DNA from: Candidatus Enterousia sp.
Lineage (GTDB): Bacteria; Pseudomonadota; Alphaproteobacteria; Rs-D84
Assembly: GCA_045613345.1 (NCBI GenBank)
Contig: JAZLAT010000005.1
Location: 203,263-267,262 of the forward strand
Length of the DNA stretch: 64,000 nucleotides
Direction of reading: 5' to 3'
The notes under the pieces are model-generated. The model was not told where the DNA came from. It saw nothing but the letters and a program-made list of their open reading frames with translations, and ran no database searches. The position numbers and the translations under genes are program-made. Of the stretch, positions 13,200 through 49,758 are shown one piece after another. Each line of letters starts with the position of its first letter. Position 1 is the first letter of the stretch.

Positions 13200-13595
13200 T
13201 TGATGGATTCCCTCGACACTGCGTGTCTGTGGGGAAACCGTAACGATTGTGGTGTGCTACGCTTCCACAATCTACTTGTTTTCGAACGGGGCAAACCCTT
13301 GGAAATCTTGGTTGTTCGAAGATTGGTAAAATTTAGTGTTTTGTGGGTATGCTATTTTCGCTCGCTCGGCACTATGTGCCGGCTGCGCGCAACCCGTGAC
13401 GATTGCAGTTCGTTTCACTTCCGCAATCTACTTGGTTTCGAACCTGTACAACTATTGGAAATCCAAAGACAACAAGTAGATTTTGCAAGCGAAGCGTGGC
13501 GAAATCGTTACGGTTGGCCCGCAGGGCTTTGCCCGAGGGAAACCCGCACTTTTTAGGTGCGGTGTATCTTTTGGTGGGAGTGGGTGTGCCTTGAT
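13200..13595. repeat. Island repeat module, copy 3, with internal inverted sub-repeats; ends in 18 bp identical to the tRNA-Tyr 3' end
   Basis: CGTAACGATTGTGG...CCACAATCTACTTG occurs twice in one orientation and once inverted. The module ends GGTGCGGTGTATCTTTTGGTGGGAGTGGGTG. Confidence 0.6.
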
Positions 13596-33462: not shown

Positions 33463-33517
33463 AGTGTTAGTGGATAGTGTAAGTGGTTAGTGCGGGCGCA
33501 TTCGCGCCCGTGTTTTT
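33463..33517 (+). repeat. AGTG/GTTAGTG repeat unit (AGTGTTAGTGGATAGTGTAAGTGGTTAGTG) fused to a hairpin terminator (GCGGGCGCATTCGCGCCCG with a T-run)
   Basis: Read directly downstream of parB. Confidence 0.55.
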
Positions 33518-33810
33518 TGATTCCTGTATATGATAATATTCCAAAGAATTGCCATGGTGGACGGGCGTTTGGTGCGTTTTTTTCACATATAAAGTGGTCG
33601 AAATTAAACCAAGGTTTTTTTTCTACCTTGTTTTTGAAATCCACCATTTACGGTTTGTGTATTGTTTTTATTGATAAAATTTGTTTTTTAAATATTAAAA
33701 AAAGTGGTTGACTTTTAACCTTGGTTTTTTATACACTTTTCCATAGGGAACTTCTTGAATAAATTGGTATCTGGTGTGACGCAAAATGAGAGGAAATATT
33801 AGAGATAAAG

Positions 33811-33960
33811 AGATTATTCCAGAAACTGTCATTCCGGACTTGGTCCGGAACAGGGCTAAGAGTTCTGGACGGATTGTTCAGAATAATTCTGAAAACACCG
33901 GCTCGCATTTCCTGGCCCTATTGCGGACCGGGTCCGCAATGACAGTATCAGGAGTAACAA
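33811..33960 (+). promoter_or_regulatory. Conserved leader element, long form, upstream of the secreted-paralog gene
   Basis: GATTATTCCAGAAACTGTCATT...AATGACAGTATCAGGAGTAACAAAAATATAAC. The arms ACTGTCATT / AATGACAGT enclose two internal hairpins (CCGGACTTGGTCCGG and GCGGACCGGGTCCGC). A shorter homolog lies at 48887-48960. Confidence 0.45.
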
Positions 33961-33996
33961 AAATATAACCAATAAAAACAAAAGGGAGTAGAAAGG

Positions 33997-35118
33997 ATGA
34001 ACCTTAACAAAATAATTTTAACATCACTGTGTGCCATCATCACCACGGCGACCGCCGCATTCGCCGCCGGCGAAAATGTGGTGGCATCAAAAAAATACAC
34101 CGACGACACGTTTCAGACGAAAATATCAACCGGAAATGTTTTGTTTTGGGATGATGACGAAGATGGTGTTTATGACGCGGAAGATGATGTGCAGGTTCCG
34201 GGCCTGGTTGCATATGACCCAACCACTGGTGCCCTGAACGGCAGAAAAATTGGTATTTTGGATTATGAAACGATTGCGAGTGATGGTGAGGGTTCTTTGA
34301 ATTTGTATTCTTATGATGGTGGATATGGCGCTGAAATGGATAATTTTGTTCCAACTGTTCATGCCGTTGCGAATGATTTGCAACGCATATGGAATAGTAT
34401 AGAAGTATTACCTTGGACCTACACCCAAACCGCGGCCGTGAATAATTACAGCACCGCATTTAACAACACAACAAATAATTGGTCAGATGTTGATTCAGGT
34501 TACATGGTTAACGGACTTAGTTTGGCAAACGGCCTGGCATTGAAACAAAACAAGATCCCGGCGCATGCGGCAAATGCGGTTGATTCAGTTTTAACCGATT
34601 CAACCACCGATGGTAATGTGCAAAAGCGTGCAATATTTGATGGCAGTGCCACATATGCCGCCGGCACTCACGCAAACCAAATCCCAACCATGGGTGCGGT
34701 TATGTCGGCAATTACAAATGGTACACCAAAGATAACTTGGTCGGCAACACAAACCGCCGCGGTGAATAATTACAGCACTACATTTAACGGCACAACAAAT
34801 AATTGGGTCGCAGCCGACAGTGGTAAATTGGTTGATGGTAATGTTTTGGCTAATGCGGTCGCACTAAAACAAAATAAAGTTCCGGCGGGGATAGCGGGTA
34901 ATGTTGTTACATATACCGGTACCGCGGGCATGGTTGGGTCGGTTGCAACATACGACGGTTCAACAACTTATGCTGCGGCAACTGACGCAAATAAAATTGC
35001 AACCGCGGCATTTGTGGAAACAAAACAAAAAAAGAAAGTATGTGCGGGTTGGCCGGACGATGTTGCGGTTGCCGATCGCACAGATGCGAATTGCTGGCTT
35101 TGGACTTTCCCAGATTAG
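33997..35118 (+). CDS. Secreted repeat protein, paralog A of an uncharacterised family
   Basis: Signal peptide MNLNKIILTSLCAIITTATAAFA. Internal repeat TQTAAVNNYST.FN.TTNNW...DSG..V.G..LAN..ALKQNK.PA. The conserved C-terminus is ETKQKKKVCAGWPDDVAVADRTDANCWLWTFPD. Paralog B is at 48994. Confidence 0.5.
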   Translation: MNLNKIILTSLCAIITTATAAFAAGENVVASKKYTDDTFQTKISTGNVLFWDDDEDGVYDAEDDVQVPGLVAYDPTTGALNGRKIGILDYETIASDGEGSLNLYSYDGGYGAEMDNFVPTVHAVANDLQRIWNSIEVLPWTYTQTAAVNNYSTAFNNTTNNWSDVDSGYMVNGLSLANGLALKQNKIPAHAANAVDSVLTDSTTDGNVQKRAIFDGSATYAAGTHANQIPTMGAVMSAITNGTPKITWSATQTAAVNNYSTTFNGTTNNWVAADSGKLVDGNVLANAVALKQNKVPAGIAGNVVTYTGTAGMVGSVATYDGSTTYAAATDANKIATAAFVETKQKKKVCAGWPDDVAVADRTDANCWLWTFPD

Positions 35119-35247
35119 TGGTAAGTGTCAGTTGTTAGTACGGGTGGCAAATGCCACCCGTTTTTTTGCACCAGAAATCCGTTACTAACCACTAACACTT
35201 ATCACTATCACTAAAAAAACACCGCCCGGATGGGCGGTGTTTTCAAT
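35112..35247. repeat. Forward AGTG-repeat unit, hairpin terminator, inverted AGTG-repeat unit, second hairpin terminator
   Basis: GATTAGTGGTAAGTGTCAGTTGTTAGTA, then CGGGTGGCAAATGCCACCCG with a T-run, then GTTACTAACCACTAACACTTATCACTATCACT, then AAAAAAACACCGCCCGGATGGGCGGTGTTTT. The architecture matches 6311-6424. Confidence 0.55.
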
Positions 35248-48640: not shown

Positions 48641-48886
48641 ATTGCGTAAAATTCAAGAAATGTGTAATATAGTGATGACGCGTGATGAACGTGTTTGGGC
48701 GTAGAAACCCATAATTTCACGATGTCCGACAAGGACGAAAACTCCAACCAAAATGGTTGGAGGGGGACGAATAAATTGAATAATCCCGGCTATTTTTCGT
48801 GAATTATAGTTTCTAACCTCCAACCGCTTCGTTTCGCTGCGGTTTTTCAATATAAAAAAGCAAGGAAAAATGTTCGAAATAAAAAG

Positions 48887-48960
48887 AGATATTCCAGAAA
48901 CTGTCATTGCGGACACCGTTCCGCAACGCCATGACAGTATCAAAAGTAACAAAGATATAA
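48887..48960 (+). promoter_or_regulatory. Conserved leader element, short form, upstream of secreted paralog B
   Basis: GATATTCCAGAAACTGTCATTGCGGACACCGTTCCGCAACGCCATGACAGTATCAAAAGTAACAAAGATATAAC. It is homologous to 33811-33960. The arms are ACTGTCAT / ATGACAGT, with a central hairpin GCGGA-CACCGT-TCCGC. Confidence 0.45.
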
Positions 48961-48993
48961 CATAATAAAAAACAAACCAAAAGGAGGGCAAAA

Positions 48994-49758
48994 ATGAACC
49001 TTAACAAACTTATTTTAACATCACTGTGCGCCATCATCACGGCGACCGCCGCATTCGCCGCCGGCGAAAACGTTGTCGCGTCAAAAAAATACACCGACGA
49101 CACGTTTCAGACGAAAATTCCGGCGGAGGTTTCAACGTTGTCGGACATAACCGGTAATGCCGGTGCATTGATTGGTGCAACCGATGCAAACGGTGTTGTA
49201 TCACAACGTTTAATAATCCCCGGATATAAAAGTGCCAGCGGAAACGGTGAATTGGGGGCCGCGATGTATGAACAAAGTGGTGACGGTACTGAGCTGTGGG
49301 GTGCTTGGGACGACTTTACTGTCGATTCATTTGCCGGAACGTTGGATGACATTTATCGTCAGTTGAATGATGCTAACGGTATGGGATATGAGCCGCAATA
49401 TTCCGTCCCCAGTATGGAATTGGCTTTGAATTGGGTGGGTGATATTGGTGATAAATTGAGTGATATTAACGGTCAATTGGTGGATATTGACGAATCAAAA
49501 CAACCAATGATTCCGGCGGGCACGGCGGGTAATGTGGTCACTTACACTGGCACCGCGGGTGTGGTTGGGTCAAATACTGTGGCATCCGCCGCAACATATA
49601 ATCAACAAACCGGTGCTTTGACCAACGGTTCGTCTATTGCCAATGTGACTTTGGTCGAAACCAAACAGAAAAAGAAAGTATGCGCCGGTTGGCCGGACTA
49701 TGTTGCCGTTGCCGACCGCACAGATGCAAATTGCTGGCTTTGGAGCCTTCCAGACTAA
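48994..49758 (+). CDS. Secreted protein, paralog B of the family at 33997
   Basis: MNLNKLILTSLCAIITATAAFAAGENVVASKKYTDDTFQTKI is nearly identical to paralog A. The C-terminus is ETKQKKKVCAGWPDYVAVADRTDANCWLWSLPD. Confidence 0.5.
   Translation: MNLNKLILTSLCAIITATAAFAAGENVVASKKYTDDTFQTKIPAEVSTLSDITGNAGALIGATDANGVVSQRLIIPGYKSASGNGELGAAMYEQSGDGTELWGAWDDFTVDSFAGTLDDIYRQLNDANGMGYEPQYSVPSMELALNWVGDIGDKLSDINGQLVDIDESKQPMIPAGTAGNVVTYTGTAGVVGSNTVASAATYNQQTGALTNGSSIANVTLVETKQKKKVCAGWPDYVAVADRTDANCWLWSLPD

Follow-up and report, generated by a model that had tools for sequence, protein, structure and literature searches.

We analysed a 64,000-nucleotide stretch of the genome of Candidatus Enterousia sp. 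(hereafter the window), in which two paralogous genes for secreted proteins, gene A (33997-35118) and gene B (48994-49758), are both preceded by a palindromic leader. An initial annotation of this DNA had seen in the leader either cis-regulatory RNA carrying a leader peptide or the operator of some dedicated regulator. We favour a different reading, with a probability of about 0.6: the leader palindrome is a small non-coding repeat, akin to repetitive extragenic palindromes (REPs) and their doublets (REPINs) or to MITEs, the miniature inverted-repeat transposable elements, lying in the 5′ untranslated region (UTR) of both genes. The element has a distinct unit anatomy, its units occur independently of orientation, it is present in some homologs and absent from others, its pairs do not covary, and the 5′ cassette that carries it is younger than the rest of the gene. 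All unit counts and searches in the source genome cover the window, which is less than 10% of that genome. Related loci or contigs bear L numbers and database proteins P numbers; L001, L002 and L003 are identical in sequence, so they represent one lineage, and the independent full leader copies compared are three (A, B and L001).

Anatomy of the leader palindrome

Two blocks, matching exactly or almost so, are shared by the leaders of A and B: ATTCCAGAAACTGTCATT, at 33816 and 48891 (0.16 matches expected by chance), and ATGACAGTATCARRAGTAACAAA, at 33939 and 48931 (0.00 expected). The claim of a leader with conserved arms is thus upheld as to the blocks and corrected as to their spacing, since the distance between the ACTGTCAT/ATGACAGT arms is 106 nt for A and 23 nt for B, not 104 and 22; for L001 it is 105 nt. 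Extra hairpins had also been noted in A. They are present, but the complementarity is not limited to the 8-bp arms and extends over all of 33814-33957, with 73% self-complementarity. The 8-bp arms are the heads of REP-like hairpin units, arranged as follows:

33814-33957, no strand assigned: palindromic element A, REPIN-like, 144 nt, outer arms TTATTCCAGAAACTGTCAT / ATGACAGTATCAGGAGTAA (inverted repeat scan, fold)
33828-33856, plus strand: REP-like unit 1, GTCAT-TCCGGAC-TTG-GTCCGGA-ACAGGG (unit scans)
33857-33914, no strand assigned: central spacer of about 58 nt with an apex hairpin, TTCAGAA-TAA-TTCTGAA, at about 33877-33893 (fold, alignment)
33915-33943, minus strand: REP-like unit 2, inverted, GTCAT-TGCGGAC-CCG-GTCCGCA-ATAGGG on the minus strand (unit scans)
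48891-48953, no strand assigned: palindromic element B, short version, one full unit and the head of a second
48903-48925: full REP-like unit of B, GTCAT-TGCGGA-CACCGT-TCCGCA
48931-48938: head of the second, inverted unit in B, ATGACAGT; the rest of the unit is missing

The unit of about 28 nt is composed of GTCAT, a GC-rich hairpin (SCGGRC-loop-GYCCGS) and then A.YAGGG. Two inverted units around a short spacer form one long hairpin in A, and L001 is laid out alike. A's outer arms reach about 12 nt past the units; as terminal inverted repeats (TTATTCCAGAAACTGTCAT / ATGACAGTATCAGGAGTAA), they are a feature found in MITEs. The RNA fold of element A has a minimum free energy of -74.9 kcal/mol on the plus strand (z = -9.1) and of about -69 to -70 on the minus strand, and the hairpin of B (48897-48941) one of -19.6 kcal/mol (z = -4.3). 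The central spacer of A is found neither in B nor in L008, and a 26-nt stretch of it, CAGAATAATTCTGAAAACACCGGCTC, is identical in L001. By its sequence, B looks like an internally deleted copy of an A-type element with about 80 nt lost.

Distribution, conservation and competing readings

Outside the window the full leader was found in one other lineage only, L001/L002/L003, with 82% identity to A over 176 nt; the palindrome itself is 85% identical to L001 2809-2954. The search for more full leader copies was fruitful for this lineage and for no other place covered: the window holds none beyond A and B, and a scan of Joint Genome Institute (JGI) metagenomes for the 3′ block (ATGACAGTATCANNAGTAANAAA) gave 5 loci, all of them chance matches without the 5′ arm.

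Units are also found in L008, a metagenome-assembled genome (MAG) from water-buffalo rumen. Three of them lie there on the strand opposite to the family gene, between an upstream ribosome binding site (RBS) with its ATG and the signal-peptide ATG, inside the 5′ end of the gene. One has 29 identical nt in common with L001 unit 1, another, at L008 2102-2123, is identical to window unit 1 at 25 of 26 positions on the opposite strand, and two adjacent units are the reverse complement of leader A minus its spacer. Near-identity of units in so distant a genome favours their spread; another leader element of these loci, element (i) described below, is just about 68-70% identical. We regard L008 as decisive. 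Related GTCAT-hairpin units occupy other intergenic sites as well (L034 1103, L035 119, L013 3194 and 3268, L004 1146), and the census gave a single additional related unit within 21 kb of L001's genome, four around L013 and five in L023.

L023 is an unrelated metagenome contig, met as a chance pattern match, which carries five dispersed GTCAT-CCCGGAC-TTGA-TCCGGG-ATCCAG units (2976, 3902, 4017, 5995 and 6107). These suggest a widespread class of GTCAT-headed REP-like hairpins.

The element is missing from the closest N-terminus homologs. In L027, which is syntenic (gidB-parA-parB-gene), the RBS directly follows the promoter, and in L028 and L031 it directly follows a terminator. Similarly, L013 carries an analogous palindromic insertion (CCGTCATCCCG...CGGGATGACGG) and its sister locus L015 is without it. 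In B and L001 the palindrome lies between terminator and RBS, which marks it as an added module. Finally, the contig with the closest relative of gene A (P0044) starts within the leader tail (L026 1-26, AAATATAAC...); a break at a repeat or palindrome just upstream would fit as one possible reason.

In some genomes, GC-rich palindromic insertions separate the signal peptide from a conserved upstream start (MKKINLFNRNTN.. or MTTLFKFFNRQMN..), as at L008 1883-2161 and in proteins P0054, P0056, P0079, P0083, P0068, P0050 and P0059. Being open and in frame, they lead gene callers to predict proteins extended N-terminally by 35-90 aa. The signal-peptide ATG of L008 lies inside a unit head (CGCCATGACAAAG).

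We then considered the leader as RNA. Rfam gave no match for the palindrome at gathering or permissive thresholds. Comparison of A with L001 on A's long helix showed 42 unchanged pairs and 14 changed ones: 6 one-sided, 8 broken and 0 double compensatory. The covariation check on the hairpins hence came out negative, save for one swap in hairpin 1, and with the opposite orientation in L008 and the absence from the closest homologs, a cis-regulatory RNA is not supported. For the leader peptide, the candidate frames are:

33786-33968, plus strand: upstream open reading frame (uORF) of A, a doubtful gene, 60 aa, MRGNIRDKEIIPETVI..., reading through the palindrome from an ATG without Shine-Dalgarno (SD) sequence
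48870-48965, plus strand: uORF of B, a doubtful conserved peptide, 31 aa, MFEIKRDIPETVI..., with an AAGGA SD 5 nt before the ATG

Small upstream frames thus exist before both genes, as had been claimed, but neither the peptide nor the frame of the 3′ block is kept: the peptides begin MRGNIRDKEIIPETVI.. in A, MFEIKRDIPETVI.. in B and MKVLERLCQRTVM.. in L001, and the 3′ block is read differently in A and B. The L001 frame is shifted by a 1-nt indel and stops within the apex loop, A has ATT where B and L001 have their SD-linked ATG, and substitutions between A and L001 in the uORF show no synonymous bias. With peptide, 3′-block frame, start context and stop position all differing among A, B and L001, the leader-peptide reading is not supported. 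An operator for a dedicated regulator fares no better, its half-site spacing differing five-fold (23 vs 106 bp). Taken together, the lack of compensatory changes, the unconserved uORF, the unequal spacing and the negative Rfam search leave the riboswitch, leader-peptide and operator readings unsupported. Two minor candidates were also rejected: a promoter in the 3′ block (ATGACA-19-TATAAC) would combine a weak -10 with a spacer of 19 nt, has no counterpart in L001 and was not called by the promoter scan, and anti-SD pairing of the 5′ block is possible in A, but the 3′ block of B has AAAAG in place of AGGAG.

Why the leader nevertheless looks conserved may be understood from the age of the gene's 5′ end. 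Between A and B the first 43 codons have a proportion of synonymous differences (pS) of 0.24, the C-terminal part one of 0.58. The rest of the gene is thus older than its 5′ module (leader and first 43 codons), a sign of concerted evolution; paralogs of other genomes likewise have near-identical N-termini among themselves. The palindrome would sit between the true upstream control region, which in A would be a promoter with an operator-like palindrome and in B the terminator-bearing element (iii), and the RBS, as part of a 5′ cassette (UTR, signal peptide and first 43 codons) kept near-identical among paralogs by gene conversion or recent duplication. It would look like a conserved leader because it belongs to this homogenised cassette. 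Co-transcribed, it would form a very stable stem in the mRNA that at most tunes mRNA stability or processing, for instance as an RNase III substrate, or ribosome access; it would neither sense a ligand, nor encode a functional leader peptide, nor bind a dedicated repressor.

Several observations weigh against a simple repeat. Copy number is low, and the units of the window are confined to the leaders of A and B. Inspection of the sequence showed no direct target-site duplication flanking A, B or L001. We looked for a REP-associated tyrosine transposase (RAYT) by tblastn with an approximate E. coli query, a weak test: none was seen in the window (best E = 2.3), nor in L001-L019 (best E = 0.97). 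The position of the element just 5′ of the RBS is alike in A, B and L001. Local hairpin 1 has one compensatory swap of C-G for G-C. Above all, the palindrome differs between A and L001 at 22 of 143 aligned positions (15%), whereas pS at adjacent synonymous sites is 0.42-0.48 (Fisher p = 1e-9); best kept are the 3′ half and the apex, and the flanks align poorly. Conservation in such excess speaks more than anything else against a purely neutral remnant. It could mean purifying selection on a function, and it fits either recent spread of the repeat or selection on the hairpin.

The strongest rival, not exclusive of the repeat, treats the palindrome as an RNA hairpin of the 5′ UTR that acts in cis and is under selection, perhaps co-opted from a repeat. 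For abundantly expressed surface proteins it would set mRNA half-life or processing (as RNase III site or 5′ stabiliser), or would link the RBS to translation upstream. Besides conservation well above that of synonymous sites and the compensatory change in hairpin 1, the very stable folds (z = -9.1, -6.8 and -4.3) and a distance to the start codon that stays at about 40-55 nt in A, B and L001 speak for it, as does the excess of G.U pairs on the sense over the antisense strand (A 7 vs 2, L001 5 vs 3, L013 4 vs 1). This excess, however, tracks the orientation of the unit and not the strand of the gene: in L008 the more stable strand is the antisense one. In addition, the long helix has 8 broken and no double-compensated pairs, B is without 80 nt of the element and the closest homologs work without it. 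We thus regard the selected hairpin as unlikely, although it deserves more credit than the remaining alternatives.

A role as DNA, be it an operator or a recombinase site whose switching would drive surface-protein variation, appears very improbable. It would agree with the perfect conservation of the 5′ and 3′ blocks between A and B and with the likeness of the family to variable surface proteins with concerted 5′ ends; against it stands, again, the arm spacing. Inverting A would alter almost nothing, its interior being a palindrome too, and the 23 bp of B are too few for an inversion. A and B, in direct orientation to each other, are separated by 15 kb that includes housekeeping genes. A single orientation is seen in L001, L002 and L003, and a search for a Hin-like recombinase, a similarly weak test with an approximate query, found no such protein in the window or in L001-L019. 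An invertible promoter in the leader palindrome was rejected on the same grounds.

Least probable of all is a translated uORF controlling the main gene by ribosome-dependent unfolding of the hairpin or by reinitiation: an ATG-started frame does read ACT GTC AT. in the same frame in A, B and L001, an AGGAA SD precedes it by 5-8 nt in B and L001, 28-30 nt lie between the stops of the A and B uORFs and the main ATG, and in L008 and database proteins such as P0054, P0056 and P0083 an upstream start is in frame through palindromic insertions into the signal peptide, but the unconserved peptides, the missing start context in A, the indel and early stop of L001, the differing 3′-block frames and the absence of synonymous bias speak against it.

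The protein family and its upstream modules

The other features of the two loci are:

33591-33629, no strand assigned: distal palindromic site of about 39 bp, AAAGTGGTCGAAATTAAACCAAGGTTTTTTTTCTACCTT, 110 bp 5′ of the proximal copy
33701-33739, plus strand: proximal palindromic site of about 39 bp, overlapping TTGACT (33708) - 18 nt - TACACT (33737) (promoter scan)
33958-33996, plus strand: A-rich spacer with the SD of gene A, AAGGGAG (sequence, aligned with B)
33997-35118, plus strand: gene A, 373 aa (open reading frame list, BLASTP, internal repeat)
35140-35161, plus strand: intrinsic terminator of gene A (terminator scan)
48642-48670, plus strand: promoter-like TTGCGT-17-TAATAT, which would start element (iii) (sequence; TTGCAT-17-TAAYAT at the same place in L028 and L031)
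48675-48850, plus strand: element (iii), structured leader RNA of about 176 nt (nhmmer E = 1.5e-54; RNAalifold)
48822-48847, plus strand: intrinsic terminator of element (iii), AACCGC-TTCGTTTCGCT-GCGG-TTTTT
48994-49758, plus strand: gene B, 254 aa, terminal modules as in A, centre unrelated to that of A

The initial annotation was right in seeing a paralogous family of secreted modular proteins. By BLASTP, A and B are identical at 40/43 aa of the N-terminus (93%) and at 67/111 aa of the Cys-containing C-terminus (60%), with unrelated central regions. The two repeats of about 100 aa described in A were confirmed (aa 128-229 vs 236-339, nt 34378-34683 and nt 34702-35013; 54% identity, E = 3e-29). 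Gene A encodes a signal peptide (about aa 1-24, cleavage ..AFA|AGEN) followed by the N-terminal motif GENVVASKKYTDDTFQTKI, and ends in a two-Cys module, ..KKKVCAGWPD..DANCWLWTFPD. Family proteins have, by sequence, a Sec-type signal peptide with an AxA end, a mature N-terminus GENxV(T/A)SKxY(V/T)D...K(Q)(D/K)I, modular centres with the recurring motifs P(T)VxAV and ALKQNKIP, and a C-terminus with 2 near-invariant Cys and a CWLW motif. The search for further paralogs brought more than 170 members (clusters) from databases, several per genome, with termini kept and centres varying; no family gene besides A and B was found in the window, and P0043, a possible third paralog from an NCBI MAG, was not located. 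All named or titled records come from gut or rumen Alphaproteobacteria MAGs, Candidatus Enterousia included. A and B themselves have housekeeping genes as neighbours (ParB, an OmpA/Pal-like protein, AccC, YbaB, PNPase).

The family is without known domain or fold. Pfam and PHROG searches with family proteins gave no match, and a sequence profile found no relative in the PDB. The AlphaFold2 model of A, made from 148 sequences, has a predicted local distance difference test score (pLDDT) of 80.8 and a predicted template modelling score (pTM) of 0.50, with residues 45-180 above 90 in most blocks. Its C-terminal module, whose structure had been singled out for prediction, reached about 90, but no significant fold match was obtained: Foldseek with the A model gave nothing significant in PDB (best E = 0.43) or BFVD (best E = 0.15), and the top viral matches, not significant either, were tail or fibre proteins. 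The model of B, from 43 sequences, was too poor to use (pLDDT 61), the deeper alignment having given the usable model of A. The family is a good candidate for a cell-surface coat or one contacting host or partner. Genomes of the order Rs-D84 are below about 1 Mb (PMC12306168), and this uncultured gut lineage thus gives coding space to a large orphan family of modular secreted proteins.

Family genes carry one of several upstream modules, (i), (ii) or (iii). Element (i), a leader RNA of about 220 nt, has a promoter and a terminator of its own and immediately precedes the RBS of the family gene. It was found in L001 (2542-2766), L006 (2144-2360), L008 (1640-1853), L014 (2062-2291), L019 (2406-2627), L020 (2250-2478) and L035 (about 160-430), and it is not in the window. 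In its structure 96.9% of cells are paired, and 17 of the 50 pairs changed on both sides, as against 9.0 +/- 1.9 in shuffles (0/500) and 2-4 in slid controls; pair counts for this element and for element (iii) were made on the same alignments that gave the structures, so both sets of controls are somewhat favourable to these structures. No Rfam match was seen at E <= 0.1. Element (i) is probably a new structured cis-regulatory RNA.

Module (ii) is a pair of palindromic sites. The window has it at 33591-33629 and 33701-33739, where the centres are AACCAAGGTT and AACCTTGGTT. The dyad of the proximal site occupies the -35/-10 spacer of the promoter-like sequence of gene A. Homologous pairs (..AAAAAGGTACCTTTTT.. 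or ..AAAACGWWCGTTTT..) stand before family genes in L007, L011, L013, L015, L017, L018 and L027, their half-sites co-vary between genomes, and, aligned by eye, the palindrome also abuts a TACNNT/GACAAT -10 in L027, L016, L011 and L018. We consider 33701-33739 the probable promoter and operator of gene A, and the pair looks like an operator pair for a dimeric protein. The centres are reminiscent of the hix sites of Hin, and ACGTTCGT of the Bacteroides invertase repeats. An inverton was nevertheless rejected: by their flanks the copies are direct repeats, the intervening segment has the same orientation in five genomes whose architecture is closely similar (L011, L013, L015, L017 and L018), and no Hin-like frame was found in the window or in L001-L019.

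Element (iii) precedes the family gene in the window (gene B), L009, L028 and L031, with the promoter TTGCRT-17-TAAYAT. Of its 49 pairs, 10 changed on both sides, vs 3.9 +/- 1.5 in shuffles (0/500) and 0-2 in slid controls. The sequence GGUUGGAGG can pair with upstream CUCCAACC or downstream CCUCCAACC, and these alternatives would constitute a terminator/antiterminator switch. In L028 and L031 about 25 nt separate terminator and RBS, an attenuator layout. With promoter, covariation, terminator with competing pairing and, in L028 and L031, a downstream RBS, element (iii) shows the features of an attenuator leader and is a candidate attenuator or riboswitch-like element. Its full-length match to Rfam sRNA-Xcc1 is sub-threshold (30.7 bits; gathering score 53).

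Thus a shared control element for a variable surface family, as first suggested, probably exists but differs from the leader palindrome, which is unsupported in that role: it would consist of the promoter palindromes paired at 33591-33739 and of element (iii). Better regulatory candidates than the palindrome are the structured leader RNAs that bear terminators, one of which lies just 5′ of gene B. Elements (i) and (iii) are both well supported as such RNAs and are covered by no Rfam family. If they sense a signal, they would reveal cues by which unculturable symbionts control their surface. The palindrome itself is ordinary, and serves as a cautionary case of a repeat in a homogenised 5′ cassette that mimics a conserved regulatory leader. 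A broader picture, in which interchangeable leader modules govern the family, (i) and (iii) being new riboswitch-like classes of attenuator RNA and the palindrome a repeat co-opted as an mRNA hairpin for processing or stability, which gene conversion would carry along with the 5′ cassette, is tentative and as a whole rather doubtful.

Some further repeats were observed. The A-rich tail of the leader (AACAAAAATATAACCAATAAAAACAA, 33956-33981) is 81% complementary to 33662-33687, between the promoter palindromes and 268 nt upstream; both are AT-rich and this may be by chance. TAGTGGTTAGTG-like motifs lie in the window at 33468, 33481 and 35116 on the plus strand and at 35183, 35196, 6389, 6402 and 44921 on the minus strand, often in tandem and, where scanned (parB, gene A, the Pal-like gene), next to or before predicted terminators; they occur also in L007 and L027 and hold stop codons in more than one frame. 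Finally, a 57-nt sequence occurs three times at 13227-13524, twice as a direct and once as an inverted copy (72-77% complementary), another repeat family just 5′ of a tRNA-Tyr/Gly/Thr cluster.

Comparison with known systems

REPINs are REP doublets that form hairpins and are mobilised by RAYT transposases (Bertels & Rainey 2011, PMC3116915; PMC3337134). The leader units share with them a short GC-rich imperfect palindrome with a conserved head, the inverted arrangement of two units around a spacer to give a long hairpin, and the occurrence of units in non-coding DNA, alone or doubled and in either orientation. Another shared trait is a G.T wobble of the stem, from which the unit gets an intrinsic strand asymmetry. 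They differ by their very low copy number in the sequence covered, with all window copies in the leaders of one gene family, by the head GTCAT in place of GTAG, by outer arms that reach about 12 nt past the units, and in that no RAYT was seen with the approximate query in the window and L001-L019.

The Correia/NEMIS elements of Neisseria are MITEs of 100-155 bp with inverted ends, often co-transcribed, present in hundreds of copies with a TA target duplication and defined integration host factor (IHF) sites. Here too a palindrome of about 100-150 bp lies between promoter and start codon, would be transcribed as a long hairpin and could alter mRNA fate, and full-length and internally deleted forms stand side by side. 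Neither the TA duplication, nor the high copy number, nor IHF sites were found for the leader palindrome.

Rickettsia palindromic elements (RPEs) are reviewed in PMC10969869. As there, the host is an alphaproteobacterium with a reduced genome, and L008 and the database proteins with MKKINLFNRNTN... have open, in-frame palindromic insertions between upstream start and signal peptide. RPEs reportedly insert in frame into genes of reduced alphaproteobacterial genomes, as Ogata et al. are said to have described in 2000. No sequence similarity links the two, and the uORFs of the window stop before the main start, out of frame with the main gene.

For the protein family, the closest analogy is offered by vsp, vsa and mpl of Mycoplasma, variable surface-protein families with a conserved 5′ UTR and signal peptide. 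Both concern multi-copy secreted proteins of a reduced genome, with near-identical 5′ UTR, signal peptide and N-terminus within a genome and divergent or repetitive centres. The copies described here are single among housekeeping genes, not clustered, each with its own promoter or leader, and no lipobox, no evidence of switching and, in the window and L001-L019, no recombinase was found.

Finally, element (iii) can be set beside sRNA-Xcc1 (Rfam RF02221), with which it aligns over the full length, including the outer helix GGUUGGAGG/CCUCCAACC and two inner hairpins. It scores about 30 bits where the gathering score is 53, and differs in its length of about 176 nt, its extra 5′ helices and its own terminator. 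Its place directly before the RBS is the layout of a cis-leader, not of a free-standing integron sRNA.

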